The notes: generated by a model not told the origin, from the letters alone. DNA of 64,000 nt from Botryllus schlosseri (GCA_051294905.1 CM119371.1:26972001-27036000); one strand, 5' to 3'; shown: positions 20,366 through 49,605, counted from the stretch's first letter. Program-made: numbers and translations.

Positions 20366-22178
20366 ATGGCATGTGTTTTGTTGCTGTTGTTTCTACTAGC
20401 ATCGGCGGTAGCGGATCCAGATGACATCGGTCAAGGAACAGAAGGTACTGGGTAGCAAACGATTTTTACAGACTGATGGAAAAATGAAAATTTCGATACC
20501 TAGGCACTGAACCTGAGACGCCACCAGAAGAAATCGCAGACGCACTCGTGGATCCGCAGATCGTCGCAGGTATCTACAAACTCCCTAATTCTTGAGGACT
20601 TGGTGAACTGGTTTTTATATTGTGTGTCTTCAGTCGAAGGACACGGTAGTGATCCAGAAGACTCGTTACTGCTCAAGCAACTGGATGATGCGGAATCCGA
20701 AGTCCATGAAATAGCCAGCCAAGGTATTGCCATGTCAACGTGAAAACTTGGGTGTTAGTGACGGCGTCGATATCCGACGATTTAGCGCTTATCTACCCGA
20801 CAATTTAGCGCTTATCCTCAATTTTTCAGTTATCAGCGACCGATTGCAGAGGATAGCCGATGATAATAATATCCGTAAGTTGACTCTCTTTCTATCTATT
20901 GCTCCGCTTCCAAGTTTAATCAGGACCAACGAATCGGTTCAATCTTAGCACCGGAGGAAGCGGCACAGGAATTGGAACATGTGCTCTGGCGCGAGTGGTC
21001 CGGTGTACAGGAGGAACTGGTTTCGCACCTGTGGCGAAGTAAGCGAAGGTTGATTGCCCCACAATTTCCAAGTTAATATGTTGTAATTTTCTGTAGATTA
21101 TTCGTTAATCGTTGGGGACATGACCGCTATGGATATTGCTGCTTTGAGCAAAGGTATTGTTGAGTGAAAGGTATCGTAGACGGTTGAATTGAGATCTGTT
21201 CAAACAAGTTCATATGCTGCCGAAATAGTTATGATAGCATGACTTCGCGCACTAATTAGAATATATACTTTCGGTTGTCGGTTCCACAAATTCCGTTCTC
21301 ACCTACGTTCACGTTCGAAGCTACATGGTTCGGGTAGTGTGATGCGACCATCGACGTTCCGATGCACCATGTTAACACTTACGACAGGCGTAGCCTTTTA
21401 TGCTACATGTTTCGGTTGGTGTGACAACTGTCGAGGTTTGTAAGTTTCATGGCGTCAAGAAAGTATACATTAGTATTCTCCCATTTGGTGTGTCTACATA
21501 TGAATTACTCCCTAGCATTCCTAGCTCCTGAAAATGGGCGCATATTTTCACATCTATTGACGGAATGGCGCTCGATTATCCGATTCCTTATGTCGAGGGT
21601 CATACGAGATATAATTGTTTTGTTAGAATACCTCGTCGCGGAGAAAAGACTGAAAGCTCTTGAGGGAAGAGAAGGATTTTGTCTCGTGAAATATCAAGAA
21701 AAGTGCTTCTGGATTGACTTCCACTACGACGCTGGGATAACGTGTGGCGTTGCCGGTCACATCTGCAAATCCAACGGTGGCCGGCTGGCTAATATCTACT
21801 CGGAAGAGCATTTGGAGATCTTGCAAGGCTACGTTAGGACGTTGATAGTTCGGCAGAATGAGAACCCTAATCCAGCTGTCTCCAGTTGGACCGGAATGCG
21901 TTACAGCGACGAGGTATGTTCCGCTGTATGTTCTATGCTTCTAAGGTTTAGCTGTTACAGTTGCTCAAGCGGTTTCGAATTTTCAGACCGAGACGACTCT
22001 ACTTTCTGACGGCAGCCCGGCACCGTACACGTCGTGGCGCGAGGGTTACCCAATCGCGATGCATGATCATTGCGTTTCCGTCCAGACAACTTTGCGATGG
22101 AGCGACCTCAATCAAGGGTATTCCAACCACGCCCTTTCCGATAGTGCTGAAAGCGTGATTTGCGAAATTTCTGTTTGA
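20366..22178 (+). CDS. Secreted C-type lectin-like domain protein, paralog A (8 coding exons, 301 aa)
   Basis: Exons 20366-20444, 20504-20569, 20634-20723, 20830-20874, 20949-21038, 21097-21153, 21627-21913, 21987-22178. All introns are GT-AG and the frame is open. Signal peptide MACVLLLLFLLASAVA, acidic stalk, CTLD GFCLVKYQEKCFW...ICKSNGGRLANI...SWTGMRY...WREGYP...HCVSV...QGYSN...VICEISV*. AATAAA near 22213. Confidence 0.9.
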
Positions 22179-23749
22179 TTCTTTCGTTTCGATAGACACA
22201 AGATACGATTGCAAATAAAACTATATGTGCGAATTTATCGTTTTTGCCTAGTCGAGTAGCATCTTTGAAAATCCGAGATTCCCGCACGGTGATATTAATT
22301 ATCACTATCATGAGGGTAGGTTATAGGACCACTTCAGTCAATGTTGCGTTTCACGGAAGGTACTACGGCTAATACCACTGGTCCTCTAGCAATAATGAAC
22401 GAACCGGGAATCATTATTTTGATTACAACCAGTGTTCGCACTTGGGAGTCCCGCATTGCGTCCTATTTCCCGAATACTAATTTGTGGCGATACGCAGATA
22501 GATACGACAGATATCCGCATGCGTCAGTATGCCATAGGCATATCTGTGGTAACGTGCGTATAGTTGACTTGGAATGAGTGCAATAGTTCGTCGTTGAAAT
22601 AATATGCTGGTAAATGTACAATCTGCAAATTAAATGAGTCCAATAAAAGTGCTAACTAAACTTTCTCTGAAACTAGGATACTTCGAGGTATATTTGTGTA
22701 GACCAGCGGTTCCCAAACTTTTTATGGTCGCGACCCCAAATTTTGATTTGAGAATCCTACGCGAGCCCACATCTAAATTTGGCGTGCTTATCACTAAAAC
22801 ATGGTCAGCACCGCCACCGAAACCTACTTACGCCCTACGTGAGTAGCAGGCGACTATGTGTTCAGTATCATAAATTATGTTGCCACTCGGTTGCACCAGA
22901 TACTAATTTATTCAATTCGTACACAAGGCAGAATTTGTGAGATGGGTGCTGTTGCATCTTGGCTGTCTATGCGTGGTGCTCTTGTTAGCAAACCACACCT
23001 TAGATTTGGCTTTACCCACAGTTTCTTCTCATGGCATGACATGGTATGGAACGAAAATTCGGTATGGAATATGGAAAAGGGAAAGTATGGTATCGTATCG
23101 AATTTTTTTTTTATATATGGGTTCCATTCTTTGACAATTTTACCAGAACCATGGCAATGATCCAACTTTTTGTTAGTCTGGTCGATTGCGTTCCTGTCGA
23201 CATCTATATGAGGACAAAAAAGTTGTGCAACTCTCATATGAAGCAACACAATATTAACGATATAATCCAATCTGAATATAATAAAAATGGATGATAGTCA
23301 ACCGCTGTCGCGTTGCAGCTTACATTTCGCTTATCGGTTCAACGATATATTTCGATTACAGCAACTTCCACTATATAAACTATCAAGAGGAGCTTGAAAA
23401 CCGTAGACTCTGTGAATTCAGCAGTTACGTGAACAGTTGAATTTGGAAGTCCTTTTCTGCGCTTTGCTCCTACACTCTAAATTCGAATGCGTGCAGAGGA
23501 ACGCAAATTTACACGCCAAATCCGGTTTTTTTTTAACTACCACACAACGTGCTGGAGCCGATGTGTGCCTGGCTATCCTGTGTTTAGTGGTAGTGTGTTC
23601 ATGCTGACTTGCGCAGAGCCCGAAATTAATACCAGCCATCCATGAATTTTTACTCAGCTTAGGCTCGAAAAAGATTTTATTGCAACGAAAGATGAATACA
23701 GAACATTCATTTGCAGACGAAAATGTGTGAATTTCTAGCTTGCACAATT

Positions 23750-25345
23750 GAAAAATTTAAGCTTTTCCAAATAGAAATAAGAACTACAGCTACAAAGTTG
23801 TCATAAATTAGATTCTAATTAGAGCAAAGAAACGTTTCACTAATTGGTGTAGAATTAGAATTATAGCAACACAGTTGTTTTCGCAAATTAGATTCTAATT
23901 AGAGAAAAGAAGCATTTCACAAATTGGTGTAGCAATTGAATTATAGCGACACAGTTGCAACCATAAATCACATTTGAATCAGAGCAAAGAAACAATTACA
24001 ATCCTAGCGACACGGTTGTTTTCACAAATTAGTTTCTAATTAGAGCAAAGAAACATTTCACAAATTGGTATGGAATTAGAATTATAGCGACACAGTTGCA
24101 ACCACAAATTACATTTGAATCAAAGCAAAGAAACATTTCACAAATTGGGATAGAATTAGAATCATAGCGACATAGTTGTCATCACAAATTAGATTCTAAT
24201 TGGAGCAAAAAACATTTCAAAAATTGGAGTAGAATTACAATCATAGCAACACAGTTGTTTTCACAAATTAGATTCAAATTAGAGCAAAGAAACATTTCAC
24301 AAATTGGGGTAGAATTACAATCATAGCAACACAGTTGTTTTCATAAATTAGATTCTAAGTAGTGCAAAAAACATTTCCCAAATTGGAGTATAATTAAAGT
24401 CATAGCGAGACAGTTGTTATCACAAATTAGATTCTAATTAGTGCAAAAAACATTTCATATATTGGAGTAGAGTTAGAATCATAGCGACACAATTGTTATC
24501 ACAAATTAGATTCTAATTAGAGCAAATAACATTTCAAAAATAGGAGTAGAATTACAATCATAGCAACACAGTTGTTTTCACAAATTAGACTCTAATTAAC
24601 GCTAAAATATTTCCCAAATTGGAGTAGAATTAGAATCATAGCGACACAGTTGTTATCACAAATTAGATTCTAATTAGAGCAAAAAAACCTTTCAAAAATT
24701 GGAGTAGAATTAGAATTATGGTAACACAGTTGTTTTCACAAATTAGATTCTAATTAGATCAAAAAAACATTTCCCAAATTGGAGTAGAATTATAATTACG
24801 GTATAGCGACACAGTTGTTATCACAAATTAGATTCGAATCAGAGCAAAGTAACATTTGAAAAATTGAAGTAGAATCAGAATAATTACTGCAGTATATTTT
24901 CTGAATTAGACTAGAATCCAATTAGAGGTAGTTTTTATTTCAAATTAGAGTAGAATTAGAAATATAGCTATACGGTAGTTGTTTTCTAAATTAGATTCGA
25001 TTGAGAGCAAAGAAACATTTCACAAATTAGCGTAGCATCAGAATTTATAGCTACACAGCTTTTTCCAAGTTAGAGTAGAAATAGATTTGTAGCTTTTTTT
25101 CGAAATTATAGTGGGATCAGAATTATAGTAACAGTTTTTTTCAAATTATAGAGTAGAATTAGAACTATAGCTACACTGTTTTTTTCCAAATTAGAGTACA
25201 ATTAGAATTATAGGTTCAGTTGTTTCCACAAATTAGATTCGAATGAGAGAGACGAAGCACTTCACGAATTAAAGTAGAATTATAATTATAGCTAGTTTTT
25301 TTTTCAAAATTAGAGTATCATCAGAATTTTAGCTACACATTTTTT
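23750..25345. repeat. Minisatellite, ~79-bp unit, decaying to ~40-bp subunits at the flanks
   Basis: Unit CACAAATTAGATTCTAATTAGAGCAAAGAAACATTTCACAAATTGGAGTAGAATTAGAATCATAGCGACACAGTTGTTAT. Unit starts at 24421, 24500 and 24579 give a 79-bp period. Confidence 0.95.
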
Positions 25346-28300
25346 TCACTCTAATTAGACAACTAGACTAGTACTAGAATTGTATAGTTGTCCAAGTCAG
25401 CAAACGAAATCAAAATCATTACTGGGATTTCTGAAATCTGCTCATAAAACAGAGAAGCTTGTTTGATTGAAACCCAAATTTTTGTCTCCAATCAGGACAT
25501 ACTGTAAAATTGAGAGTATCTGGAAAACTTTTGGATATGTGGGGTCACAAACATAATAGAGAAGATCCAGCACCATCTCAAATGGTATCGCTTTATTGTG
25601 AGACGATCCCTTTATGCGGAAGCCATTCGCCACGATCCATGACTGCAGGTCACCATTTTCATGGTGCGCTAGTACGAGATGTTGAGGACTCAGCTTTGTG
25701 GCCGTTAATTGGACTGAATGGGCCTGGAACTGAAAGAAATATGTTAAGTAAAATTATATTGCCAATAATCCATGTGTGAATTGAAAGCACAAGATTTAGA
25801 TTATGTAGAAATGCCTTTATGGGACTTCTGCATAATGAATATTGAATAAAAATAGAGCTGAATAGGTCAATATAGGTTTTTGTCAATATGGTTTAACAAG
25901 CTTAACTCATGGAAACAAGTGATAGCAAATTCTGTCGTCACGATATGCTGTGTAGTCGTTGACATGTATGGTTTTTTTTCCACATAATCATAAGTTTACT
26001 AACCTTTAATGATCCATTCAGATTTGATCAGTATACCATCATACAGGTTCCTTTTGGAACGGCACAAGTATTATGTTCACATTCACTGATTCTATGCACT
26101 ATATTCATGGTAGCCATCCTCATGATCTCGAAGTCAGGAAAACCAAAAATTACATTAGCAGCAGAAATGATTTTCCATGGTTTGGGACAAAAACGAATTT
26201 GCACCAGCTCATTCTAACTTAGATTTAGCCTTATCAAAAAGAATGATGTAATTGAAAAGCATTTAATAAACATTTATTTTTGGAGGCCTTCTCCAGTTCG
26301 AGTGTTTATTGCACCGTCATAACGTAAACAGCGTCAATCAAAACATAGGCCTACCATATTTTCAGCCCCCAAAAACAATTGTGCCACATTTTGGCGGCAC
26401 ACATCTGAGCTCAACAGACCCTGAATTGGAACATATGTTTGTGGCGCAACTTGGAAATTAACAGACCCCCGAATTAGAACCAACTCAACATGCGCGCATG
26501 TTAAGCCATAAACTTTTCAAACTAGCTGTACTTTTGTGACGGTCTGTTAAGTTCGAACTTGTGCCAGATAGTGGCATGCAAAACGTCCAAGGTGTTACGG
26601 AAGACGCCGAACAATGTTTGCCGAAAAATCATGACAAGAGTCGAAATCAGTACAAATCTGACAAACCAGGACGTTATGGTACTTCTATGTTCATTGTTCA
26701 CACAGTTCCAGGTTAAGCAAGCAGCAAATCCTACAACTCACCTGATAAAGCGTTATCACCCTCAAATCCTGTTGTGATTCTCTTTTCAGTTACTGCATTT
26801 CATAACTCCATCAGGAGTATAACCGCAGCGGGTTCTTTTCCCTACAAATAAATATAAATAATGTAGAAGATTTGGTTGAAGGACAATCCACTTATTGCAT
26901 TCCGGTTGATATGAAGGCAAGAGTTCTGACACAACAATATTTAATATATAAAATTGCAACAAAAATAAACAGGATTATCCCAATTAATAAATTCATTCTA
27001 GAATAGTTAAATATTACTAACCTCTAACATCTGTCTCTAGCTCTACTCCAAATATTTCGTCATGAGTAGTAAGTATTTCGCTTCGACACTCCTCGGAACG
27101 AACATTTGAAACCCCGCTCTGATCTATTACAAAGGAAAAGTGTTACTATAAAAGCAGCTATGTAGTGAGCTAAGCATGCACATTGCACACACACTTCTAT
27201 GTGTTATATAGAGGGAACTTGATATGAATATAATAAGATTTATTTCACTGGATAATATTAACAATAATTATTATAATGGGTTCATGAATGAAATGTCATG
27301 TTTTCAACCAATGAAAATGTCATGTAATTGGAAAAACAAGTGAGTCAACTGCAAAGCAAGATCTATATAACTTGGTCAAGAATTCTAGTTGTAAACCCAT
27401 ATTGCATCAAGTTAGAGGATTAACAGACATTCAGAAACTCAGTTTCGATGCTACTGCAAGTTGATCTAAAAGGCAATCTACCAATATTTCTCACACTGCT
27501 GCTTGCTGTAATAACCCTCTTGACAACATACCGGTAATCATAACATATCGCATGTTGATATTCTTGAACGAATTACCTTCAATTATTAAAGCAATGTGTT
27601 CTCTCGTAATGCCGTACGCAATCAACATCTTCTTCATTCCTTCCGCTATGATGAGATTAGCGACACGTTCATTCACATCCACAAAGTCACTGTACTGCGA
27701 CCTGTCGCTCCATTTAAATTTGACCCTTTGACCCTGACTGAGTTCCCGCCGTTACCGAGAGATGTGAAGCGTGAATGAGAGAGAAAGAGAGAGAGAGAGC
27801 AATAGAGAAATATAGAGATGTTTATTCAGTCAACAGTCAAAAGCAGAATGCACTGATAATAGCCAGGTAACACTAACGACTACTAAACAACGTACTTCAA
27901 AATTACATGGTGATGACAATGATTGATTGATTGATAGATTTCTTCATTGCTATACTGCTGATATATCAATGATCAATAATGGGGAAACGCAATATAATGG
28001 AAGTCATAGTCAAGTCAGACAATCATGTGGTTGTAACAATGATATATATAATTGGGTTGAAATTATCAATTTCTTCTGCCAGTTTGGTAGGTAAATAAAA
28101 TGAGAAGAGAAACGTTCACAAAACCTAGTAAATGCAAGAAATCGACAAACTAAAATAATGGAGCGACATTGATGAAACAGCAGTCCACTTCATGGCTCCT
28201 GAGCAATGTGCCCTTTTAGGTACGCATGTGTGCAATTGATTTGAGCTGACACGGTCTCTGCTCACATAAATTATAAGTTGCGCACAAAAAATCCGAAGAG

Positions 28301-29229
28301 ATGACCTTTTTTTAGTGGTTACGCACTGTTGTCCAAGGGACCGCGTAGTGAATAGGTGAGCGCTTGCTGCAGACTCGTCAAAATTAGAGGTAACATTGCT
28401 TCTGAGCTATATGTAAACGGGGCTAAAAGCACGCATTACTTACACGAGAGTCGTTATTAACGTTCAACATCTATTATAGAAATGCTGCATCATTTGAGAA
28501 TCTATATCTTGCAGCTTAATTCCTCCCCTGCAAATAACCCAGCGGGAGCAAACGGACCCCAGGGTCATTGGGTTTACCGATGACGTCATGATCGGCACAC
28601 GAGTGTACCGTACCTTACCCTGGATGATCTGGTCATTTACCAGTGACATTACGATAAGTTTCCGCAGCGTTTCCAGCGTCGACCTCACAATCCCTCTCAA
28701 TCTTACTGATCTCACAACTCGTGCGGCGACTTACCGGACTATTAAAATGTATACGTAAACTCTTTCATAGTGATCAAAGCCGGCGACAGATGATAAGATG
28801 AGAGCAGAAGCACATATTTCGTAACTTTATTTGATGAAGTGTGGACTTGCACATATTATGACACCACTTCGGCGAAAGATTTGGGTCGACTTTATGTGTT
28901 TGTCCCATATTGCATCTTTGAATGCACAATTTTGTGTCTAAATCGATCCTTTCGATTTAGAGTGTATGATCATCACACAGACTAATGATATCATATCATA
29001 TTTCTAATATTTTACTAGCTCTTACTTCTTCTGCTCTATAAAAAAATATCTAAGTGGGCCATTCCCAACCTGGACAACAAAAGTTGAAACCACCACATTC
29101 CCAAATCTTCTGAAATTTGATACATGCATAGATGAGTTAATTTCGAACACAATGAAGTTTATTAGAAGAAAATTGATCCCCGGGGTCAAATGTTATGGGA
29201 TTAAGAAAAAATGACGATTTTCTGCTCAG

Positions 29230-30885: not shown

Positions 30886-31029
30886 ATGCACAGCTGAAAT
30901 GAAACTAAGACAAACAGTAGCACCCACACACATCTTTTCCGCACCGAACTATAAGTCTGGTATCACGCAATTCGTAGATGCGGCCGTATTATGTAACGCT
31001 GAACTCTAAACTTATTACATTATTTTTGT

Positions 31030-34047: not shown

Positions 34048-34235
34048 ATGGTTTGTTTGTTTTGTGGTATTCATGTTGTTTGTCGACTACTAGGGCCATT
34101 TACACCAGGCCGATATTGTTCATTATTTGCCGTTTCTGCCGACCTATAGCACGGCCCAACCTCTAGGCTTTTTGTAAGACACCGCTTACGCGGACGAGGA
34201 GGCAAGGAGTAGCCTAGGTAAACCTCCAACACTTA
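34048..34235 (-). mobile_element. 3' fragment of a retroposon (SINE/LINE) with (AAAC)n tail; second copy at 51164-51351 (+)
   Basis: Reverse complement of 51164-51351 (AAGTGTTGGAGGTTTACCTAGGCT...CCGCGTAAGCGGTGTCTTACAAAAGCCTAGA...TAGTAGTCGACAAAC...AAACAAAC). Confidence 0.75.
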
Positions 34236-34947: not shown

Positions 34948-34973
34948 AGGAGAAAGGGTCACGGGGTCATATG

Positions 34974-36985
34974 CAGTGGCGGCTCGTCCTATAGGGCAAC
35001 TGGGGCATTGCCCCACTTAAAATTCTGTTCAATACCAATTCTTTACCATATATAGACGCACAGCAATCTATATATACCGAAATCACAGCGAAAATCGCAT
35101 TCTTCTTGTCCTTTCGCCTGTAAATGCCCATATACAGCGAAGACTCTGCGAAAATCGAATTCTCTTCTATGTTTTTGCTTTGCGAATGCCTAGCCGGGGC
35201 ATGCCCCGGTAGCGCTCATAACAAGCTTTCACTATTTATTATCTCAAAGCCGCGCACAATAAAGAAACGGTGATTTACTCTCTCCTATTCATAAAATTAC
35301 CGAGCAAGTGGGGCAACATAGGTCTGTTGCCCTTAAGGTGTGATGTAACACTCGTATCTATATCTGAACTCGGTTACCGTCATATGCGTTTAGTCGACGT
35401 TTGCTGGTATAGGTCGATTTTGATGGTGTTTCACACTATGATAATTCTTGAAACTTGGTATGTCATGTCGTGATGGCGGTATTTAACACGGCCCCAAGTT
35501 TCAGGGTTTTTACTTAAAGTTTAGGGTAGTAATTCCGTTTCCGAAGTTGAAGTTGTGCTGATTCGTCATGCATCGCAAACAGATTTTACTCAAAAGCCGG
35601 TATTGGTATCCATTGATTTTGACGATGTTCTATACCGAGATCGGCCATGACATTTGGCACGGTAGGTAAGTCTTGATGTTAGTATCGAACGCTGTACCAA
35701 GTTACAAATTTGTCACTGAACTATGTTAGTGGTAATTTTGTTTCCTAAGTCGAGTGAGATTTGACTCGTCATTTATCGCAAACAGATTTTACGCAAAGCC
35801 GGTATTGGTCTCTATTGATTTTAACGATGCTCCTTACCTAGATCCGTCTTGAGCTTTTGCACGGTATGTCTTGATTTTAATATCGAACGCTGTGTCAAGT
35901 CTCAAGGTTGGCACCCAATGATTGGGGCAGCAATTTCGTTATCAAGGCCGAGTATGGTAGAGATGTGCGCTGATCTGACGCTTAGCCTACCTAACGCATT
36001 GCGGATTTTACGCAAAAGCCGGTGTATCTGTATTAACGTTAACTGTGTTCCATTATAGATAACTAGTTGAGTTATCTATAGTTCCATACTGAGATAGGTG
36101 ATGAGATGATGATATCATGAAACAGTTTACTAACATTCTCGGTTTGCATTCAAATATATACTTTTATTTTATATTCTCCAACGTCAATTTCACCGTGAAA
36201 TTGCGGCCTTCAGGCCATTCGCTTACAATTACAACCCCTGTCAAGCGCGATAGCTGTTTCGTTTTCGATGGCGGCTAACAGCTGATCACTTGATCAGCCT
36301 ATTCCCAAGTAAATTTTACGCAAAATTCGGTGTTGGTCTGTTCGTATTAATTTTGACAGTGTACCATACCGAAAATGGCCATGAGGCTTCTTCTCGATGA
36401 TGTCATGTAACAGTGTACTAAGTTAACGGCTTTTATCCACGTATTTATTCGGTAATATATTTTCCAAAGGCGATTTCGCAGCGGACATATAGACAGTAAG
36501 CCGTATGTGTCGTGTTACAGTCTCCAGTTTCAAGGCCAAAATCTCCTATGGTGTACCCAGACCGAATTTCCGAGGCTGCTATCCTTGATAGTTCTTCAGA
36601 ATGATGTTTTGGATTCAATATGACAGGCCCGGTCTATGAGATAACAATTGCGTGTGTGTCCGATCTCGTTGACCTTTCCAGTTAGGCTTACGCAATCTCT
36701 CGAGTTATAGTCATTTCCATTTGTGCAGATAATTAGTCAGGTCAAGTGCGAACATGAACCGTGTTGAATCTTTGTTCCGTACGCCGTTTACGCAGTTACC
36801 ACACTTCAAGTCACAGCTCACCAGCAGACCTCTCGCGGCAAAATCACTGTTGTCGAGAAATTCATGTTACCGTACCATCATTAAGTTACTTGTTTAAGTT
36901 GGAAAATGCCATTGTGACGTCATCTTGATAAAAAATCGCTTGCAGCCCTTGCCCCACCACCCGATATTGTCACGAGCCGCCACTG
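34974..36985. mobile_element. Non-autonomous hAT (Tip100-like) element with internal ~200-bp degenerate tandem repeats
   Basis: Termini CAGTGGCGGCTCGT...ACGAGCCGCCACTG. TSD GTCATATG/GTCACATG. ATTTTAC(G/T)CAAAAGCCGGT-like motif recurs near 35583, 35786, 36005 and 36313. Confidence 0.88.
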
Positions 36986-37159
36986 GTCACATGCATAGGC
37001 CTACCCTACAATATTCACGAGCACTCTCCCGCAAGAGTTTACTGACTATGCCCTGCGTACCAACCGGTTTTGCATATCCTAACATTACACGAGCAAAAGT
37101 ATAGAAGCCCATAAACTCTTCCGAAACCAAATTGAACACAGTTATCAAGATTTTATTTC

Positions 37160-38593
37160 TCAGAGGCCAGGGTGCGAATGCGACACTTGATCCAACGGTC
37201 GGTGCATCATACACAAAACCCCTCTGGCGACGTGACCGGCCGGTGGGTTGAACATGAACTGATGAATATCCGTCCATTGGGCCGTCGTCTTCATGGCAGT
37301 GCAGCAGCAATTGGTTGGATCGGGATAGCCTTCTCCCCACTGCACGTAAGCCCCTTCCGTTCCATCATCATTCAGAAGTCGACCAGTCTGCAAGGATTGT
37401 TTGGATTTTGGTAGATTGATGACAACACGTCACAACTCACCGCTCTGTCGTATGTCCAGTCCAACCAGCTATCGATGTAATTCTGATGGTCGTCGTTAGA
37501 CAAAGGCAAGATAAGAGTGCGAACGTGCTCTTCGATCATATTGTACAGCTTCTCGCTGTTAATGACGGCAGGTTCCCCACCGCGGGCGTGGCAGACGCTG
37601 TGAATCTCCGCGCAAGTCACTTGATCGCGAAGCTCGACCCAGTAGCAGATGTCCCCGTATCTGATGTGGCAAATATCTGCGACAAAAATCAAAACAAGGT
37701 CATTGACCGTGTGGCATTTAACCCTACCTTACAAACTGAAACCAAAAAACGCCTGAAGCTCGGTACACGCGACTGTAAGTGAAATAATCACATCATACAG
37801 GTATATGATACACGCTGGAGCGAACTGGGTTAATGCATACCTTCGGCTTTCTCCAGGAGTGCGATTCGCATCTTCATTTCAACCAAACCTAACGAGTGTG
37901 CAATGAATATTGACATTTCCCTGTAAATATTTGGTAGTCAAATACTCACTCGCGTTCAGCGCATCTCTCTCGTGTCGTACGTCCTCGACGTCCGCGAACA
38001 TGCTTTCGAAAACTGTATAAAGAAAATACATTAACGAAACGGCGCATGCGTGATAGTACGAAAATCAACCCACATTCTCTAGACTTGGGCGAGTCTAAAA
38101 ACTTTCCGAGTACTTTCTTGAATATCACAGAAAGCCGTTGCTGAAATCGCTCGAATTCGGCAGATAGCGCTAAAAGAAAAAAACGTGACATTTTTAATAC
38201 CGGCTAGATTTGAATAGTGACAGATTCACTGCTCACTTCTATTTCCCGCCTCGAGTTCACCCAAATGTAACACCAATTTCTCCCGATTCACCTCTGAGAA
38301 AACAGTGATAAAGATGTTAAGTAACGCTTCATTGACACCACCAACTACACACATCGTAGCGTACGTACTCAAAAACGCGGACAGCGTGTCGTACTCTTCC
38401 GTAAGCCTAGCGGTCTTCTGTAACAACGCATCGTGCTCATCGCCTGAGATGAGGTCATGTTGAGATAGCTATAAAGAGCCGCTATCATATAGGTCTTACC
38501 GATAACTGGATCAGACGCCGGAGATCTTTCATCGGGATGCTGCGCTCCAACGGAAACCGACAGTAAGAAACACATGGATAGAACGAAAATCAT
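37160..38593 (-). CDS. Secreted C-type lectin-like domain protein, paralog B (8 coding exons, 298 aa)
   Basis: Exons 38593-38500, 38443-38369, 38293-38237, 38169-38074, 38012-37950, 37888-37841, 37676-37441, 37387-37160. All introns are GT-AG and the frame is open. Signal MIFVLSMCFLLSVSVGA, helical stalk, CTLD DICHIRYGDICYW...VCHARGGEPA...DSWLDW...WGEGYPDPTNCCC...QFMFNPP...VLC. AATAAA directly after the stop. Confidence 0.9.
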
Positions 38594-39150
38594 GCTGCAG
38601 CGATCACTACCAAATACCAAATAACGCTGTTTTGCATAAAGAACAGGAGTTGACAATCATTACACTTATCTAAGACGCCATCATCCACACGCTACTGCAA
38701 ATCCCTTTCTATAGATGAGATTTACACTACGAGAGCAGGTCTCGACCGTTATTTTCTTTCTGAGCACAAACGCGAAGGTACTGCAACGTCGTTTTAAATA
38801 GCACAATCATAATTGAAGCGGGCGACTCGCCGAACTCAATAATCACAGGTAATTTAGATATGCGCACGACAATTGCATGAAAACAACAGCTCTCACGTTA
38901 AAAACGTCATATGTGCTTTGGGCGCATTGTCTTCGTTATATTTTTTATCAATTTGCACTCATGACGCACAATATAGTTGCTCGGTGTATGTCATAGAATT
39001 TGTGTCTACGTGTATATTTTTTACAGAGAAAGTGTATGTTTAGAACGGCTGAAATTTTACTGAATGACATACCATAATCTGAAGACCATACAATCCCCTT
39101 GTTCAGTGGCGAAGCTCACCTATCGATGCAACGTGCAGTTCGGGCGTAAC

Positions 39151-41282
39151 CAGCACTTTGGAGCAGCCGTAAATTTGCATCGCTCCAGCTCCGGAGCTTT
39201 CTTCTATCATACATTAGCTCCGGCTCCAGCTCCAGAGCCGCATTATTACCACTGCTCCGGCTCTGAAAACTATCGAAGGTGTCTGTCTATATCACGGTTG
39301 GGCAACCCATATGTGGCCCGCGAGAAGGTTTTGAGTTGCCCGCGAGCTGATTTCCCATTATATTATCGAAATTATGTTATATTATCGAAATAGAATTGCT
39401 CAGATTGTGAACTTGCAAGGCCAACCAAAAATATGATTAGTCTCGCCGCGACACTTGGGATGTTGAGGACAAAAATATCAGTTTCGAGGCATTGGCAGAT
39501 CCAGGGTCCAGTCACATTTTTAGTCAATCATCGTACATTACAATAAACTAAAATAGTAGTAAAATTTGTCACACGATTTTTTCCTTTGTAGCCTACCCTC
39601 ACCTGAAAATGAAGAAACGCCTGATTTAGCCAATTGAGTCTAACTATATTCGTAATTACGAGAGAAAGTATTTTCGCGTTCGCGCTCGCAGAACGATCGT
39701 CGGCGATGAAATGTATAGGCACAAAATGATTGTCGTATATTAGCGGAAATCTTCGATATCGATATCTCCAGATGCCGAATAGTCCTGTCCTTGCAAACCG
39801 AGCCCAGCGGGCGGTATACAGTCGACCCGCAATATACCCAAGTAATGATAATATTCACTTCGACAATTTTACGCGCCTGGCGCGGCTAGTGGGCAGCGCA
39901 CTCTTTCGTCAATTTCATGTGGCCCTTTAGCCGAAAAGGTTGGCCACCCCTGGTCTATATAGATTACTAATTTACCCGTAGGTTAGTTATCCATAGTAAT
40001 CTAGAGTCTGTCAGCCGTCAGTAACATCGGATACAGCAACGAAGACATAGGTGCCACCGTACCCGCTTGTGACGACATAATGAATACTTGTCAATTGTCG
40101 ATAACATAATAGTTCCACTAGAACGCCCTTTACTCCGTGCCATTGCTGTGTACAGCATTAAAATTCTAATGCGGCGTTTTAACACTGGCACTGTACTCGT
40201 TAACATTAAGTCAATTTAATTTTTAAGCGTGCGTTTATTATCCAACTGTAACTCTAGTAAGAGCAATATGGGCGGATATAACGACGTGATCAATAGAAAT
40301 TCGATTTGTACCAAATGGTCAATGGTTTGACGTTCGATATTGGTGCACTCGTTACCAGTTCAACCGGTGTTGATCAAGTTTATCTGAATATAATATTTTC
40401 CGGTTGAAACATATCGAATAATCGAATTAAACACTGTGCCATGCACATTGCGACATGCCCATAACGAATTAAACTATGCAGTATGCACAGTGCGCGATAA
40501 TCTGGGAATACTAGAGTATCAAGCAGACATCAAGAATGAATTAACGAAACAGATGATTACAAATTGGAGATCGCGTATCAAATCAGTAATTTGTCTCCAA
40601 CATAAAATACCATGGGGTTTTGGGCTAGTCTTCTGACATCCCCCATTTACGCTCAAACATCCTTACTGGAGTGAATGACGATGATGCGCAGTAATGAATT
40701 CAAATTAGCATGCATAATTACATACCCAATAACACTGTCCAATTTCGCGGCCCGATTAAAGAACTATCACGAAAGAACGAGTACGAGAACGAAATCACGT
40801 TTTTATCCTCTCTCCCATATCGCGTAATTTATAGTGATCATTATTTTCAAACCGAATACAATTGACCAACAAGGTTGTGCTGATGATGAAATTGCGGGTA
40901 TGCCGAATACGCACAATATTCACAGGCATATTTGGCATACCGAGGCTCAGCACTCATGTATGAAAATTGAACATTGAACATATACGACTGCTCTGCTGTT
41001 AAATCCCCAGGAACATGTTTAGTCAGAAAAGGTAGCGCCAAAGAGGAAAATATTTTTAATTTCGCGAAGGCCTGCTATTGAATTATGTGAACTCAGCAGG
41101 TATGGTTGTTGCATGTATAATAACATCTTATGGAATACGTCGGAGCCGGAGCTACCCCTCAAATAACTGGATCCAGCTCCGGCTCCGGCTGAATTTTATG
41201 TAGAGCTCCGGCTCCGGCTCCGGTGAAAATGCACGACTCCGGGGCTCCGGCTCCTGGCTCCGTCTCCGGCTCCAAAGCCCTG
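39151..41282. mobile_element. Non-autonomous hAT element with GGCTCC subterminal repeats
   Basis: Termini CAGCACTTTGGAGC...GCTCCAAAGCCCTG. TSD GGCGTAAC/GTCGTAAC. Confidence 0.85.
39293..39952. mobile_element. hAT-Charlie/Buster-type MITE nested in 39151-41282
   Basis: Termini CACGGTTGGGCAACC...GGTTGGCCACCCCTG. TSD GTCTATAT (39285-39292, 39953-39960). Confidence 0.9.
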
Positions 41283-41319
41283 GTCGTAACAAACTATATT
41301 TGAAGTGCGGTCATTCGGG

Positions 41320-41775
41320 CGGGGTATGGGCCGGAGTCGGATTGGATATCCGGCCGGATTTTCTCATTTTGGCCGGATCCGGTTAGGAGCCGGATAGGTA
41401 CTTTTTCTAGTACGCCTGGAGTCAGATCGGAGCCGGATCAGTACTTTTGACTAGTATTTATGACAGCCTTACCCTCTTCCACCCTCCATTCAATAGTTAA
41501 TGTTAAAGGTTCATGGAAATAAACCACATGCTAAGTCCAAGTTGGCATAATTGCTTCAGATAACGGGTTGGTTTGATCTTTGAGTTTTTAATTAGGCTAC
41601 CTGTTTGCATTGTTTCAACAAATATCCAATACCATTTTGTGTGGTAAATAAATATTATTGGAGTTTTTCGGATCGGATCACGGTCATTTCTAGAGTCCTG
41701 CCTAGAAGTCGGACCAGAGCTTTAAAAACAGAATCGGAGTAGAACCAGAGAATTTGTCGATCCGCTATGCACTAG
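41320..41775. repeat. Decayed MITE-like element with CCGGAT/CGGA subterminal repeats
   Basis: Clusters of CCGGAT/TCGGA at 41330-41440 and 41668-41765. Similar motifs at 45980-46040. Termini not resolved. Confidence 0.45.
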
Positions 41776-42256
41776 CTAGGCACACATCGAATCATCTTTA
41801 CAAATAGTTGCTTGGAACCATAGCTGCTACAGCGCCAAGTAATACGAAATTTCCAATGAAAACACGCATTTGTATAAGGTAATAGTTGATAAACTTAGCT
41901 ACGATATAATTGGGTTACATGGACCTAAATGAAATAGAAGTTGATTTGCTTGAGAGTACATTTCAATACGTAAAAAATATCTGGTATGACATTTCAATAT
42001 CGTCTGACTAGGTGATAGGTTTTAGGCAAGGATAGTGTATAATTATATTGTCACGCTAAGTGCGTGTGCTGTGTGCACTGAAAACTGTTCGTGTTCGAAG
42101 AAGGATTAGCTTTGATTGAAGGCTAGGGCTAAAGTTTACTTCAGGGCGGGCTAACCCGCGGCCGTATAAGGTAATTTGTGCGGCCGTCGACACGTAATTC
42201 AATTAGTATGTGTTGGCGGCCGTCGACACGCATATGTAACTTATACGAATTGACAC

Positions 42257-43819
42257 CAGAGTTGGATCAATTACATTATTTCAGTTCAATTACAATTACA
42301 ATTACAATTACTTTCATGCATGTTTCAATTACATTACAATTACAATTACTCCATGCTAAAAATTACAATTACAATTACAATTACTCCTTGCATGCTTCAA
42401 TTACATTACAATTACAATTACAATTGCTGCTGTTGAACATGTAATTGAATAATCATAAATTCAACCGTGCTCCTTGACAACCGTAGCGTCGTATTTAACA
42501 ACAATTCAAGTCTAGTTCAGATTGTGTAGTAATAAATGCGTTTATGTGCGTACATACTACATGGTATGCTATGTAAGATGTCATTGTGACGTAATATAAG
42601 CGTGTTTTGTATGCTCGGTAATTATGGCTCACGTAATTGGAAATGTAAAATGTTATTTACCTAATTTCCTATGGGTTAGGATTAAGGATTGGGTGCAGTA
42701 TGTCGTTGAAAAGTATTATACTATATGCACGTGTGGGATTTGCGTATATAGTATATAATTAAAGAAATAATATTATTTTTATCGAGCGACGTAGGAATTA
42801 GGATGAGGAGTAAAAACAAAACCGTGCTTTGTCAGATAAGACGTTATATAATATCCAGTGGTCTGGTTAGTTAGCCAGACGAAGTAACGATGCAGCATCG
42901 GGATCTGAAATCGTATTGTAGATTGCCAACCCACGGATAGATGCGCAAGATGTGAGTCACGGATGAATGCACCGACAAACGTATTGCACAGCCTGCTAAA
43001 AGCAGCAAACTTTGTAGTCCTAGAGCTGGCGATTAATGCGTCCAAATTTGATGCATCTGGTCTTTATCGTAAGCTATTGATGTATTAATTCCGAAAATAC
43101 AAAATAAAATCTTGTCAGGGCAATGTAACTGCTCCAAAATAGCCGTTTAAGGCCGACTGTTCTGAAAAGTGAGAGCGCTGCAGCAGCATGACCACAACAA
43201 TTACCAATTACGCCCAGCGATTGTTCAGAAGAATGCCGATTCCCAGACTTTCACGACTATTTTGGGATGGTACCATTGCCTGGAAATATACTTTTATTGC
43301 GGAATCAGTGCGACACTAGCTTTCGATTAGGACCATTGATATCAAATTTCGACGCTTGGATCGCCAGCTATGGGACTATCAATTCTGCTGCTTTTAGCCG
43401 GCTCAGCAGTTCGCTTCTCGGCGTATTCAATCGTGAGTCACGTGTTGCGAATCCATCCGTTGGTTAGTAATCTAAACATTGTATACAATGGCAGCCGAGG
43501 CCAGCATAGCGGTAAAAATAAAAATAAACTTCGCTCGCAAGGGCGCAGTCAAGGGCTTCGCGAATGGATCCACCAAATTCCTTGTCGTCATTTAAAGAGA
43601 ATGCATTATAATTCAATTCTTCTATGTTGTGCTTGTCAGGTCTCAATAGCAACTTAATATAATTGAAATTGTAATTGAGCAAAATTTTTGTCGAATTACA
43701 ATTACAATTACAATTACACAAAATAAAAATGCTTCAATTACAATTAAATTACAATTACATTGAAAAATGTAATTAATTACATTCAATTACAATTACAAAT
43801 TACAATTGATCCAACTCTG
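42257..43819. mobile_element. hAT-type MITE with (AATTAC)n subterminal arrays
   Basis: Termini CAGAGTTGGATCAATT...AATTGATCCAACTCTG. TSD ATTGACAC (42249-42256, 43820-43827). Confidence 0.93.
42925..43467. mobile_element. Foldback MITE nested in 42257-43819
   Basis: 42925-43100 is an imperfect reverse complement of 43293-43467 (GCTAAAAGCAGCA/TGCTGCTTTTAGC; AGCTGGCGAT/ATCGCCAGCT). Confidence 0.7.
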
Positions 43820-44887
43820 ATTGACACCCGAATTTTTGAGAGATATCGATTAATCGTGAAATTTTCTTCGCGCGATTCGATGTGATTTCATTTTTCGACT
43901 TTAATATAGTAGCGCCTTTCGCAATCTGATCCCCACAGTACAGATGCGAACAGCAGAGAAAATGATGTGTCCCATATTATATGGGCCATATATAAATACA
44001 AACTTCGAATCGTGTGCTCGTCATTTATGAAATTTGTTTCTAGTAGCTTACGTTTGGGCGCTCCAACACCGTTCCACAATTCCGACAATCCCGATGCGAG
44101 GTCAAGAAATAACAGCATGCAACTAAAGACATGGATAATAACAATTGGGCCACCCGAAGATGAATAAATATACATAACTTAACCCAAATTTTCCAAAACA
44201 CACCCTCCATCCACTCTACCAGTAAATTTGATTACATGGGCTGAGTGAGGATAAATATTTGATAGAAATATGTGCTTTTGTGCAACTAATAATATTATTG
44301 ACGAATTCATTGGTGAATATGGAAGATTTTCGTGCATTCCGCGATCATAACGATTCCCAGCAACTGTTTGTAACATGACCACTCACGATCTCGGTGCGTA
44401 TAGTAAGCCGATATGAAAATATATTAGTTCGCAGTTCACCGGAAATGAACATGGGCAGTTCAACATGGGTATTTGCAGTTTAGTTAGTCCATGCGGCCGT
44501 AGGGTACATAAGTAATCGAAATGCAGCCGTGAATAGCAGGTTGGCCACCCCTGGTTTACTTGGACGAATATTAGACTCAGTAGACGTTGTATACAATACA
44601 TACAAGCTTATTAAGGCAATGAAATGTGTTTAGTATCAAGTATGGCGCGTAATCATCACTACAATTATACGGACATAAAGGTAGAATGGTCAGTAACGAA
44701 GTACTGCTGCTCTTTACGGATTACTGCTACTTGTGCTAGTTACTCATGTGGGTATTAATTTCGTGTACTTTCACGTTTCGTGAGCAGATTCGAGGCAAAA
44801 TTACTGACAATATGCATGCAATTTACAATTTCAGTCGCTCAAAACCATATTTAGAGCAAGTTCGAATCTCTTTCATGTGTGGAGTAG

Positions 44888-45740
44888 TCATAAAAAGTCA
44901 TAAGAAGTCATAAAAGTCATAAAATTATTAGGGCGACTTCTTGACATGTCTAAATAAGTCAAAATCTTGCCAAAATTGTAGCGTTAGGTCAAAAAATCGT
45001 CAAAATTGTATACAAAGTCAATTTATTTTTGCAACATGCATTGGTTTGCATCGAAGATGTTTGCATTGTCAGTGAACTTATCATTGGACAATTAGCAGCT
45101 TGTAGCCAACTTCATAGGCATATACCGTTGTAGACTGTCAATTGTCCGCTCATTCTGAATCATAAACGGTCAAATGAAACAGATAGGCTAAGCCGACGTG
45201 CTGTTATGCACAACGTACCGCAATATCCTAATTGAAGCAAGACGGCTTGAGCATTGGTTCTTATATCGAGATGCGCATGATGAAAAATTGTGATGTAGCT
45301 TGTGGACATAATTGTCAGAATGAAGCAACACGGTGTGTCACCAGAAGTGTACGCACAACTTGCTGTGTTGCCAGCCTATAACTGCTGCTGTTAACGTTCT
45401 TTCTTAATTCTTGACAAGCTACTTAGTAAGGACGGACACGTTTTACCAGAGAATGTAGGAAAGTATCTTTCGTTGCACAACGACAAATTTTAATTATTTC
45501 TACCATATTGCGTAGTTCTACGTACTTCCAGATATCCTTAAAAGGAAGTATTTTCTTTTACAATTCTGTCAGTTTTTAAGTCAAAATGTTTTCTCATGCA
45601 AAACTACTTTGAAAGGACAGACAGCTCCAACCAGGAATGAAGAGGAGGAGTGCAATTCCTAACATTATCTGCTATTACATCTAATTTACATACATGAGGG
45701 TAAATGTTGGTCCAAATTAAGTTTTCTGAGGTCGAAAAAT
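44888..45740 (+). mobile_element. Degenerate hAT remnant, uninterrupted paralog of 1100-2825
   Basis: AAGTCATA subterminal repeats at 44888-44925. Decayed CQPITAAV..SF motif at 45365-45480. Single ATTTACAT at 45684-45691. Confidence 0.75.
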
Positions 45741-47377
45741 TTCAAACCCTTCTGTTCATGTCAATTCTTTCTGTGTTTTAGGCAAAAATAAATCACCTCA
45801 CTCATTATACAACCATCACGACAACTGCTGAATATAGTTGCGAAGATCAAACATATATTTGTGGTTTCGTTTGTATTCTTGAGTGGGTCACGAAGATGCA
45901 GCATGCAATTTTGAAGGTAGCCACTTCCGATAATTACCAACAGTATGGGAATTAGTGCTGGGCAGTTCGTCAAATTTCCTAGTCCGACTACGAGCCTGAT
46001 CTTTTTAAATGGAATCCGGCTCTGATGCCAATCCGGCTATATCAGAAAAAAGTATGAGTATGGCTACAATCTGGTGCTGGAAATACATAAAAATACCCTG
46101 CTAACATACACAAATGATCTCGCGCATATCCAGCCAATGGACCACCCATGCCTCGACCGAGTAGGAGCCTCCGACGGATCATACTTTATGAAATTACTTA
46201 TCTGACTACCATTCATACTTTTCATTTTTTAATCCACTTAGCTGTAGCTTCATTTTGTCCGGGAAATCGATAATTTCCGTTGATATTAAGCGGGAATTTG
46301 TGGCATTACGTCTACTTCTACTTGGGTAACAAGGCTGACTACTAATACCACCTTTGTGACATGAATTTGTCCCGAACAGGAGTAGCAAAAGAAATAATAG
46401 TCATCGAGTGCATCTCGGACGACTCTCGCTCAACTCGAGTGTATAATTGGGTCTTGAACCTGAAGTCAATTCGTGTATATTTCCAAATATCTTGTGACAC
46501 CCTTAATCGATGCAGAGCGTGATAGTTTCGTTTTTGAGCTAGCATCACTCGTGAGGTAATCATGATCCAGTTCCGGAGCTGTTTCTGGAATGTTTGCCCG
46601 AATTCTGAGTAATTGTTTTAATGCGGTATTCATGATCTAGAACAGTGATCCCCATCCTTTCTCGGTGTATACATTAGTAATAATTTCCACCATGTCATAT
46701 ATGACACTAAGAACAGAATATTACGATAGAGATGAGCATAGCATCGTATTAAAAGTCTGATTCTCATGAATTTCGCAGGAACTATGCCGTTCGATCGACT
46801 CTCTTCCGTCAACCGCTAATTGTTCCGACAGAAAACTGGGTAGCTAAACATCAAAATCTTGTATGTGCACGCCAGCTGAATTATTCATTTCCACAAATTA
46901 TACTTCGTTCCACACTGTCTACGTAACTGTTTCTCGGCTCAGAAAATTCTGAGCAGTCCAGCAATGCTTTAAGCAACAAGTTGATTTACGTAGGCTACCA
47001 ACGCAAGATCTGTCCCAACCAGAACATGAAGCCGCTCAAGATTGGATTTCAATCCAGTCCTATCATCTTGCTCGAAGTCTCGTGTACTGTTACTAACTAC
47101 TCTTGCTTATTTACTTGGGTAATCTTTTAGACCGGACGCAGATGCAAAGGCGAAAGTGATTCCATACCAAATTCAGCTCCACGGAAAACCAATCGATTGA
47201 GAACCGTATTAGCTGGGATTCCTGAAATCTGCGAACCTTGTTCTGCTATCTAGTGTAGGCTACTTGACACGTTGAGCTACTAACTAGCAAATAGCTATGG
47301 CTAGCGTTCTACGGCATCGAAGAGATCAAGGTAGAGTTTGTATTTCAACAGCAGCACAAATTGATATGCACATCAAC

Positions 47378-49605
47378 TCATTTCTCGCAGATAACGCTTT
47401 TAGCTTGATGCCCATGCGGGGGATTGAACATGTCCTGGTAGACTGCGTCCCACTGTGAAGAAACTTTGACAGCCATGCAGCAGCAAGCGGAATGACGCGG
47501 ATGACCGGGCATCCATTTGACGTAACCCGCACGACCACCGTCTGGGAGCACGACGTGGTTCGTCTTGAAGAGAAATGATTGGTTTACACACATATTTCAA
47601 GCGTATGCCACCAACTGTAAGCAAACCTGTGGATGGTACGACGAGACGATCCAGCTGTCCAGGTAATTTTCGCGAGGCGATGATGGTTTGATGACTACGA
47701 CGGATCGGATGAAGCGGACAAGCTCGTTGTAATGAAGTTGAGAGTAGAACGACGCTGGTTTGCCACCACCTTCAGAGCAAATATCCGCTATTTCGTCGCA
47801 GCCGATCTTCTCTCCTTCCCGAATTTCAAGCCAAAAGCATTTTCCGTTGTACTTCACGGAACAGAATCCTGGAAATGGATACCCCGCGTTTCAAAACCTA
47901 CGACATACTGCCACCAAGCGTACAAGTCGCATATCTAGTAATCGGCACTATCCAACCACCAAGCGTACAAGTCGCATATCTAGTAATCGGCACTATCCAA
48001 TGGGTTCAAATAGAGTCGCATGGTAAAACCAAGCCAATAAGCTCCATTATCTAGTAACGGGCACTATCCAATGGGTCAGATAGTTGCGCAATGCGCATAC
48101 TTAAATTTCCATGAACATCCAACAGGGCTAGTCGGTTCCTTTACTGGTCCCACAATTCTCAGCGATATTAGGTGACGGTACAGAGTTCTTACGACGCGCT
48201 TCAATCCTCGATTATCTGCACATACATATTGCGCGTATTTCGTATTTGAAGTGCTATTTCCGGGTTTCACCGGCATTCACATCCATTCTAACAGGTGTAT
48301 TGTAGTCATAAATTCTCGCAAATTCGTACCGTACATAGCAAGGACGTTACTGGTCGGGGACGGTACACAACAATGAACCGACTCCTCATGTGGGATGCAT
48401 ATCTACGAGTTTTTATATACAGAAGTCCCGGTCACCAATTTGAATCGAGTGTAAAACTGATTTGAGTGTGAAAGTAAAATTTCAAACCATAAAGGAACTC
48501 CACCCAATTTGTATCCAACGCTATATAGCGAAAATGAGCGATATATAGGAGTTACGTTTGCAGTGGACCAACATGGTTACAGTGCACTAAGATTGTTATA
48601 ATCACCTTGTTTATCCCCGACGCTTAGTATCCCCTCGTCCAAGCTTTGAGCACCTGAAAAATAAGTCAATGACACAGAATGCAACGCGGATACGAAACCG
48701 ACCCTCACTTACGTGATCTCAAATCTCGCAGTAGGGATTTCGCGCGAACCACTCTGAGATCGTGAGATTCGAGCACTGAAAAATAATGTTGAATTACTGC
48801 GCAATACTGTTCATGGACGTTTGCACGCTTCTATAATCACTCGTCGAGTTCGTGCTCGCGTCGATCGCCCAGCTGTACACCGAATTCGCGGTCAGCGGTA
48901 GAATTCTCGCCATGCCTTCCTCGATATGTGCGGTCGCGTGATCTGTGAATGGTGAAATTACATCGACATGCTAGATTGGAGCCGTGGGCGCTCGAACATG
49001 CGCCACTTTGAAGCAGGCAGGGCTGCGTTGAGGCTAGTTCACGGGCCGATAAAGTGACATGCTTGCAACTTGCAAGTCGAAAGCGTTATTGCTCAGTTCT
49101 TTGTCAAACTGCGTGGCATGCTCAAAACGTCCTGACAACTGTTGAAAGGATCGAACCCGCGCAGCGAAACGAGCTCCAACTGTCCCCTCAGTAAAGGCAT
49201 AACTTACCGAGGTCTTCCTCCAAGTAAAATTTCTGCAAGTCCTCATTCGACTCTGTTGAATGAATGGATACGGTAGTCACGTGTTGAACGGTATATTAAC
49301 ACTTGGACCTTTATAAGACGATCCAACCTATACTGGTACCTGCAAGCTTTTTTAGCTCAGCCAATCCTTCTTCAGTCGCGTTGATTTTAGTATACAATCG
49401 AGAGTGCAGACCGGCAGAGTCTAAAGAGATGAACACGTACGTTGAAACCTATTCCCAAAAAGCTCGGTACATGATTACCATCGACGTCAGTCGATCTGGC
49501 CACTCGCTCCACTAGGCCATCAACAGACTCGACAATTAGATCACCCGACACGAACAATCGCAGAGACAACAGAGTCCAAAAGAAAACCGAACTGAATACG
49601 ACCAT
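47378..49605 (-). CDS. Secreted C-type lectin-like domain protein, paralog C (8 coding exons, 297 aa; possible extra cassette exon)
   Basis: Exons 49605-49479, 49420-49340, 49252-49208, 48942-48841, 48775-48713, 48653-48606, 47868-47627, 47563-47378. All introns are GT-AG and the frame is open. Signal MVVFSSVFFWTLLSLRLFVSG. CTLD GFCSVKYNGKCFW...ICSEGGGKPA...DSWI...WMPGHPRHSACCC...QDMFNPP...VICEK*. The 63- and 48-nt exons match paralog B. Confidence 0.85.
47911..48000. repeat. Perfect 45-bp tandem duplication in an intron of lectin paralog C
   Basis: CCACCAAGCGTACAAGTCGCATATCTAGTAATCGGCACTATCCAA occurs twice, with a partial third copy at 48048-48076. Confidence 0.95.

Follow-up and report, generated by a model that had tools for sequence, protein, structure and literature searches.

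Three divergent genes for predicted secreted C-type-lectin-like proteins in Botryllus schlosseri

Results

Gene models

A stretch of 64,000 nucleotides from Botryllus schlosseri (GCA_051294905.1 CM119371.1:26972001-27036000; hereafter the window, with a GC content of 40.4%) carries three genes, here called A, B and C, each coding for a predicted secreted protein that ends in a domain like that of C-type lectins (a CTLD), together with a decayed fourth copy. An initial annotation, made by a model from the sequence, had proposed three stop-free genes of eight exons each with GT-AG introns, and translation of the window in all frames, with exon ends then fitted to GT and AG, rebuilt them as claimed. 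Gene A lies on the plus strand at 20366-22178 (exons 20366-20444, 20504-20569, 20634-20723, 20830-20874, 20949-21038, 21097-21153, 21627-21913 and 21987-22178; 301 amino acids). Gene B runs along the minus strand from 38593 to 37160 (exons 38593-38500, 38443-38369, 38293-38237, 38169-38074, 38012-37950, 37888-37841, 37676-37441 and 37387-37160; 298 amino acids), as does gene C from 49605 to 47378 (exons 49605-49479, 49420-49340, 49252-49208, 48942-48841, 48775-48713, 48653-48606, 47868-47627 and 47563-47378; 297 amino acids). None of the three has an internal stop. GT-AG borders mark each of the 21 introns, whose phases are 1,1,1,1,1,1,0 in every gene, and 17 of them measure 53-106 nucleotides. 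The coding sequence has a GC content of 0.51 and the introns mostly one of 0.34-0.44; a single intron also reaches 0.51, namely intron 3 of gene C (49207-48943, minus strand; 265 nucleotides). No in-frame extra exon was found in this coding-like intron, and an additional exon there or in intron 6 of the same gene was discarded, for the read depths per bin, with their 3' bias, match the eight-exon model, though not decisively. Upstream acceptors for exon 5 of A and exon 2 of B each lead to a premature stop and were likewise rejected. An optional in-frame exon of 30 nucleotides is possible in intron 6 of B (37772-37743, minus strand), where the donor is weak. Intron 2 of B (38368-38294, minus strand; 75 nucleotides) is itself in frame and stop-free, and its retention would add a hydrophobic stretch of 25 residues. 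A polyadenylation signal lies 36 nucleotides 3' of the stop of gene A.

The shared number of eight exons is partly a coincidence, since gene A has its 48-nucleotide neck fused into exon 7 (21627-21913) and one stalk exon more than the other two. It lacks the intron between neck and CTLD found in B and C, both of which place exons of 63 and 48 nucleotides before the CTLD. The conserved phases claimed at first hold, but the exons themselves are not one-to-one homologous. Similarly, only the stalk exons are hidden from a search for open reading frames (ORFs), as the frames of exon 7, which belongs to the CTLD, are visible from stop to stop as ORFs of at least 80 amino acids. Even so, A, B and C are real genes that annotation based on ORFs and Pfam would largely miss.

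Protein layout and stalks

The predicted proteins agree with the proposed order of signal peptide, stalk of about 130 residues and C-terminal CTLD. Each begins with a hydrophobic stretch (Kyte-Doolittle 10-residue maxima of 3.4, 2.9 and 2.0 for A, B and C), after which a hydropathy scan found no segment of membrane length, and the stalks are 142, 127 and 134 residues long. In protein A the leader is followed by an acidic stalk and a CTLD with six cysteines; B has a C-terminal tail of 14 residues; C is the sister of B and shares with it a CCC motif in the CTLD. The CTLDs are 29-35% identical in pairs (z 34-55 against 500 shuffles), which bears out the strong divergence first noted. Whole stalks compare no better than shuffled ones (z -1.1 to +1.2), as expected from the earlier claim that they share almost no sequence, but they are not wholly unrelated, because exon 2 of B and exon 1 of C have a short motif in common (z 4.6, the best of 171 exon pairs, equalled by none of 300 shuffles).

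All three stalks are acidic, that of A the most so (35 D+E versus 10 K+R), and the mature stalks contain no cysteine; no Gly-X-Y run of at least three triplets is present in any of the proteins. As all stalk introns are in phase 1, the stalk exons are symmetric phase 1-1 modules that could be gained or lost without a frameshift. The clearest heptad pattern is seen in residues 68-95 of B. The neck of A aligns to the neck of collagenous relatives, where the helix model has a low-confidence predicted local distance difference test score (pLDDT) of 52-72 and heptad scores are mixed. Comparison of the three stalks with the N-terminal parts of 57 relatives gave nothing significant (best E 0.027). 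By analogy, A, B and C probably form oligomers.

RNA evidence

Reads were mapped over 36900-52300, which covers genes B and C, from two raw RNA runs with the same species label (X18 and X22) and a DNA-like run (X13), alongside contig pieces (X1). The RNA follows the exons of both genes. In run X18, 11 listed exon or untranslated-region sites of B are covered by 16-72 reads and two listed sites of C by 110 and 130, whereas five listed sites of intron 6 of B, where the depth in X13 is 74, have none. The X1 pieces end at predicted exon edges, exactly so at 37441 and 47563 and off by one base at 37388, and their distances to ends of 17, 33, 17 and 23 equal the exon-edge distances for exons 6, 5, 4 and 3 of B; for exon 2 of B and exons 1-5 of C the RNA support is bin depth. 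Expression of B and C differs between the samples, as X18 is strong and X22 near zero over both genes: depth per bin over C is 14-88 in the former and 0.3-1.7 in the latter, which is at 0 across three bins of B. Among the listed records that hold gene B sequence, none is registered as RNA.

CTLD assignment

A profile built from exon 7 of A, B and C matched 140 representatives at E<=0.001. Thirty of these were looked up: 12 are unnamed Logan records and the 18 with names all come from Styela clava, in keeping with the tunicate origin and the lineage-expanded family proposed at the outset. The names are 'uncharacterized', 'pulmonary surfactant-associated protein A-like' and, for one cluster, 'macrophage mannose receptor 1-like'. 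A hidden Markov model (HMM) of 43 relatives spans the CTLDs of A, B and C end to end with 133, 114 and 130 bits, scores that are not independent, the relatives having been found with the same exons. Among 50 relatives scanned, 20 have a Lectin_C match and 11 a Collagen match, and a profile of the relatives matches 82 PDB sequences. The AlphaFold model of one relative (P0009; pLDDT 92.5) matches CTLDs, those of CD23, CL-K1, Mincle and tetranectin among others, at Z 16-17.5. The model of exon 7 of A (pLDDT 81) consists of the neck helix, a beta hairpin and two helices. A fold search with this half domain returned nothing at E<=0.001, its best E being 0.54 with weak CTLD rows, and 40 of the 41 rows listed are lectin-fold chains by title. 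The cysteine pair joining helix 1 and the terminal strand is invariant across the alignment, A, B and C included. Clusters in the ESM Atlas, where Lectin_C appears at 0.84-0.92, serve as a lead only. Judged through the relatives, by sequence comparison and structural modelling, the assignment of the three domains as CTLDs is firm.

Identity between A, B or C and their closest full-length relatives is about 27-39%. Together with the window GC of 40.4%, against 35.25% in Table S6 of PMC7540406, this points to a styelid ascidian distinct from S. clava, probably a botryllid. Word-indexed protein searches for full-length forms returned none or four relatives only, and A, B and C themselves had no full-length copy in the protein collection searched, which is weak evidence.

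Family, trees and rate of change

A domain match was obtained for 122 of the 140 representatives, comprising 37 distant CTLDs, 34 fragments, four multi-domain proteins and 47 full-length proteins with a single CTLD. Of the last group, 22 have a short collagen region, 16 a signal peptide with a non-collagen stalk, four a membrane anchor and five neither, so that, with 16 of 47 sharing it, the architecture of A, B and C is nothing unusual in this family. Their distinguishing feature is the cysteine-free stalk, for all 16 comparable non-collagen relatives have at least one stalk cysteine. The same atypical CTLD also occurs in tandem arrays of four to five domains, on membrane-anchored or long helical stalks (P0001, P0003, P0020, P0029 and P0028), and this variety of carriers suggests that N-terminal parts are swapped freely in the family.

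For alignment and trees, 14 of 57 relatives were excluded because the anchor pattern was missing. Both trees place B and C as sisters (support 98/85 and 90/83), and in the 46-row tree all three genes fall together with one membrane-anchored protein and three collagenous ones (97/92, bootstrap not settled). The monophyly of A, B and C is neither supported nor rejected (approximately unbiased test, p-AU 0.21) in these trees, which were built without vertebrate rows.

Each gene has its own counterpart among the unnamed Logan proteins: P0002 and P0162 are 75% and 77% identical to C, P0004 is 61% identical to B and P0016 is 58% identical to A, with identities of only 26-53% to the non-matching paralogs. 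Set against the 29-35% between the paralogs, such values fit old, maintained paralogs with counterparts in another species or a divergent lineage; fast diversification of the family, as first described, is not shown. Second X1 contigs over exon 7 of B and exon 8 of C are 91-93% identical and may be divergent alleles or recent paralogs. Between the X13 pieces and the window the difference is 1-6%, as much in the flanks as in the genes.

Sugar site and cysteines

In the alignments, the EPN motif of SP-D falls on Y-P-x of relative P0147, and the IgY receptor aligns likewise. The EPN/QPD position reads YPI in A, YPD in B and HPR in C, which puts Tyr or His at the first calcium ligand; an EPN/QPD-like triplet anywhere in the sequence is seen in one of 46 aligned rows. 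Strand beta4 of the family model aligns to YSN/MFN with no cysteine after it, and with the register placed in this way the WND motif is missing in all three proteins; the triplets WSD, WTD and WDA were considered for it and rejected, since they fall in the beta3-beta4 loop when aligned with the family model. Asp is kept two residues before the beta3 cysteine in A and at the third EPN position in B. Given established CTLD chemistry, the replacement of EPN/QPD and the missing WND make canonical calcium-dependent sugar binding by these proteins unlikely.

A cysteine at the start of helix 1 is found in A, B, C, P0005 and P0147 only, of 46 rows, and all five also have a beta3 cysteine, from which a re-routed disulfide between these two positions is a reasonable expectation in A, B and C. 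B and C have two adjacent cysteines in addition, a pair also present in three other unnamed relatives.

A decayed copy and the surroundings

The count of three genes missed a fourth, decayed copy on the plus strand at 51706-52024 (remnant D). This A-like remnant consists of the 3' end of exon 7 (to 51790), a GT-AG intron of 58 nucleotides and the last exon (51849-52024), with an in-frame stop at 51941. It matches A by tblastn at E 0.003, and the match of its last exon to exon 8 of A was reached by none of 2000 shuffles; its score in the family HMM is low (2.7 bits). No 5' part was detected; the sequence upstream contains repeats. The X13 piece over the remnant differs from the window at 25 of 389 letters, above the level of the flanks. 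A six-frame scan of the window with the family HMM found no paralog besides A, B, C and this remnant.

The space between the three genes is mostly repeats. A reverse-transcriptase fragment (18981-19919, minus strand; RVT_1, E 3.6e-24) ends about 450 bp upstream of the start of A, and an AT-rich tandem array with an 80-bp unit (23776-25359) begins about 1.6 kb downstream of that gene. Farther out are a tRNA-Ser(TGA) gene (14603-14684, plus strand), whose 3' part is repeated at 15445-15514, an inverted duplicate of about 900 bp (57196-58092 and 58627-59494; copies at 94% identity, whose ORFs are broken and have no Pfam match) and further palindromic elements at 6275-6869 and 42919-43474. Next to remnant D lies a tRNA-like element of the short interspersed type (52208-52290, plus strand), with motifs resembling A and B boxes by eye and no call by Rfam or ARAGORN over these positions. 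Hundreds of reads of X18 and X22 have loose ends at 52208, which we take to resemble a template-switch adapter, and diverge from the window after 52281-52289. Reads that start at 52208 and then diverge suggest transcription of related copies at other places, beginning at this position.

Discussion

The reading we favour, with a probability of roughly one half, is that A, B and C are secreted, probably trimeric, calcium-independent binding proteins that act by analogy as soluble recognition or opsonic factors in innate defence. They would be old divergent paralogs in a styelid-ascidian family of atypical CTLD proteins, whose commonest form seems to be collectin-like with a short collagen region, and would be secreted by way of the N-terminal leader. 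A helical neck, probably homologous to that of the collagenous relatives, and helical segments of the stalk could bundle the chains, probably by three, which would let the heads bind with avidity. The heads themselves may use the long loop region to bind proteins, lipids or unusual glycans, with no need of a canonical calcium site, and such molecules would most likely serve in blood, mucus or tunic, for recognition in soluble form or for opsonisation. In-frame gain and loss of phase 1-1 stalk exons could make stalk sequence and exon layout turn over, whilst the CTLD is kept. A precedent is CiCD94-1, an ascidian CTLD protein which, according to the available part of its description, lacks carbohydrate binding and acts in phagocytosis (PMC5465252).

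Several observations weigh against this interpretation. Its immune part is drawn by analogy. In a Pfam scan of single exons, the Lectin_C match sought for these genes appeared in one of the six CTLD exon pieces (exon 7 of A; 19.6 bits, E 0.0016), below the gathering cut-off of 22.6, and in none of the other five; the full CTLD fold was modelled for relative P0009, the window's own piece being the half domain of exon 7 of A. For the coiled coils expected of the stalks the evidence is mixed: the best heptad window was equalled by 3 of 300 shuffles in B but by 129 in A and 73 in C, and the mean helical moment by 12 in A, 141 in B and 17 in C, again out of 300. In the 25-row tree, the nearest equivalent of the group with collagenous relatives is weak (63/81), so that a direction from collagen to its loss is not established.

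There are also the limits of the gene models, on which the least probable alternative depends, namely that at least one model is an artefact of splicing by hand or that gene A is silent. Mapping of RNA, asked for by the initial annotation, gave coverage restricted to exons for B and C, whilst gene A is a model by sequence, and no junction-spanning read is present among the junction rows listed (15 of 579), all of which come from repeats. Alternative in-frame splices, such as the optional exon in intron 6 of B, would point the same way. Such an artefact appears very improbable, given the seven canonical introns, open frame of 301 residues, polyadenylation signal and 58-65% counterpart of A and the way in which RNA tracks the exon pattern of B and C.

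A structural or regulatory role in the extracellular space, be it as a matrix or growth factor like tetranectin or CLEC11A or as a component of tunic, mucus net or adhesive, is possible, albeit rather unlikely. The tetranectin layout speaks for it, as 1htn is one of the best structural hits to the family model (Z 17.1) and a profile match covers neck and CTLD, and so do the missing canonical sugar site, the maintained counterparts at 58-77% identity and the strong difference in expression between samples. This last difference is uninformative on tissue, X18 and X22 carrying no tissue identity; besides, the nearest full-length relatives are collectin-like, and large lineage-specific gene expansions are more typical of defence genes. 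Less probable still is that the three proteins are calcium-dependent lectins like GBL, with a helical stalk that recruits MASP and leads to C3 activation. The Halocynthia roretzi protein, with its coiled coil in place of collagen and its association with MASP (PMC8605247, available in part), and the expansion of complement and MBL-like genes in S. clava (PMC7540406, likewise in part) lend this idea some ground, as do the Asp residues kept by A and B. It is contradicted by Tyr or His at the first EPN ligand and a beta4 strand without WND, and stalks so nearly unrelated in sequence would hardly be expected if all served a single conserved protease partner.

Equally doubtful is that we are dealing with fast-evolving, highly polymorphic ligands of self/non-self or gamete recognition under diversifying selection. 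The very low identity between paralogs, the second contigs at 91-93% (if these are divergent alleles or recent paralogs) and the turnover of genes seen in remnant D would agree with it. On the other side stand the separate counterpart of each gene, the uniform 1-6% difference of X13 in flanks and genes, and the 12 coding variants listed, five synonymous and seven non-synonymous, in which the synonymous share is above neutral expectation in a biased subset (40 of 1341 variant rows).

It is tempting to go further and regard A, B and C as the colonial-ascidian branch of germline-encoded soluble receptors restricted to styelids, in which a sugar-blind CTLD was re-stapled by the new disulfide from helix 1 to beta3 (plus the vicinal cysteine pair in B and C), the long beta3-beta4 loop serves as a variable protein-binding surface and interchangeable phase-1 modules swap the effector stalk between collagen, helical and membrane-anchored forms. 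This extension is unlikely as it stands. If true, it would reveal a modular, antibody-like repertoire of some 100 genes, which at present go wrongly by the labels surfactant protein or MBL.

Returning to soluble recognition proteins as the favoured reading, secreted CTLD proteins expanded in one lineage are a common sight among invertebrates, and A, B and C will be of little surprise to a specialist. What they add is that the CTLD expansion counted in S. clava extends to a second styelid. Moreover, most family members, though labelled collectin, MBL or surfactant protein, probably lack canonical sugar binding, which bears on counts of the ascidian lectin-complement repertoire. Should the heads indeed be variable modules that bind without calcium, carried on stalks that can be swapped, they would offer a tractable case of innate receptor diversification in the sister group of vertebrates.

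Regarding known systems, the idea of an undescribed one is not supported, given the 16 of 47 relatives with the same architecture and the precedents of GBL (PMC8605247, in its available part) and tetranectin. The literature searched, whose coverage excludes most subscription papers, contained no study on A, B and C, and nothing specific to them came from PMC12212465, PMC9953650, PMC7401272, PMC12817120, PMC514892 or bioRxiv 10.1101/2025.05.20.655184. In the accessible portion of Table S8 of PMC7540406, the 'surfactant protein A-like' family expanded in S. clava is gene family 5041, with 88 genes and none in two Ciona species, Molgula oculata and Oikopleura; going by its annotation name, it is probably the family of A, B and C. 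Many C-type lectin genes are also described for Botrylloides (PMC12212465, seen in part).

The tetranectin family (CTLD group IX: CLEC3B, CLEC3A and CLEC11A/SCGF) resembles A, B and C in being secreted, with a long-form CTLD and a stalk that is helical, as theirs probably are, but is no closer than other CTLDs, since it ties with CD23, Mincle and CL-K1 in Z and with others in the profile search too. The stalks of A, B and C are much longer, with six or seven phase-1 exon modules, and tetranectin keeps calcium sites and the canonical second disulfide. Collectins (MBL, SP-A, SP-D, CL-K1 and the ascidian MBL-like proteins) have the same signal peptide and C-terminal CTLD, with a helical neck of the kind that A, B and C probably have; the full-length relatives nearest to the three resemble collectins, and P0147 can be aligned to SP-D over collagen, neck and CTLD. 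Unlike collectins, the three proteins have no Gly-X-Y run, no N-terminal cross-linking cysteine and no EPN or WND. With H. roretzi GBL, compared by description, they share a stolidobranch origin, secretion and a non-collagen stalk followed by a C-type domain. That protein of the lectin pathway, in the part of PMC8605247 available, binds glucose and activates MASP and C3, whereas A, B and C are without the canonical sugar-site motifs; no GBL was present among the named proteins in the relatives fetched.

Closest of all is the S. clava family of 'surfactant protein A-like' and 'uncharacterized' CTLD proteins (XP_039270131.1, XP_077976405.1 and XP_039265182.2). Its members differ from A, B and C in that the latter are only about 27-39% identical to them, lack collagen and stalk cysteines and have the extra helix-1 and beta3 cysteines (elsewhere in P0005 and P0147 only, of 43 relatives), with CCC in B and C. 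Both have, all the same, a CTLD homologous end to end, with GGxPAxIYS, W-x-x-G-Y-P in place of EPN and no cysteine after beta4, as well as a homologous neck, similar size and a signal peptide, and non-collagen stalks occur in both. A, B and C thus represent a known kind of protein, as unstudied members of a large family that has also expanded in S. clava.

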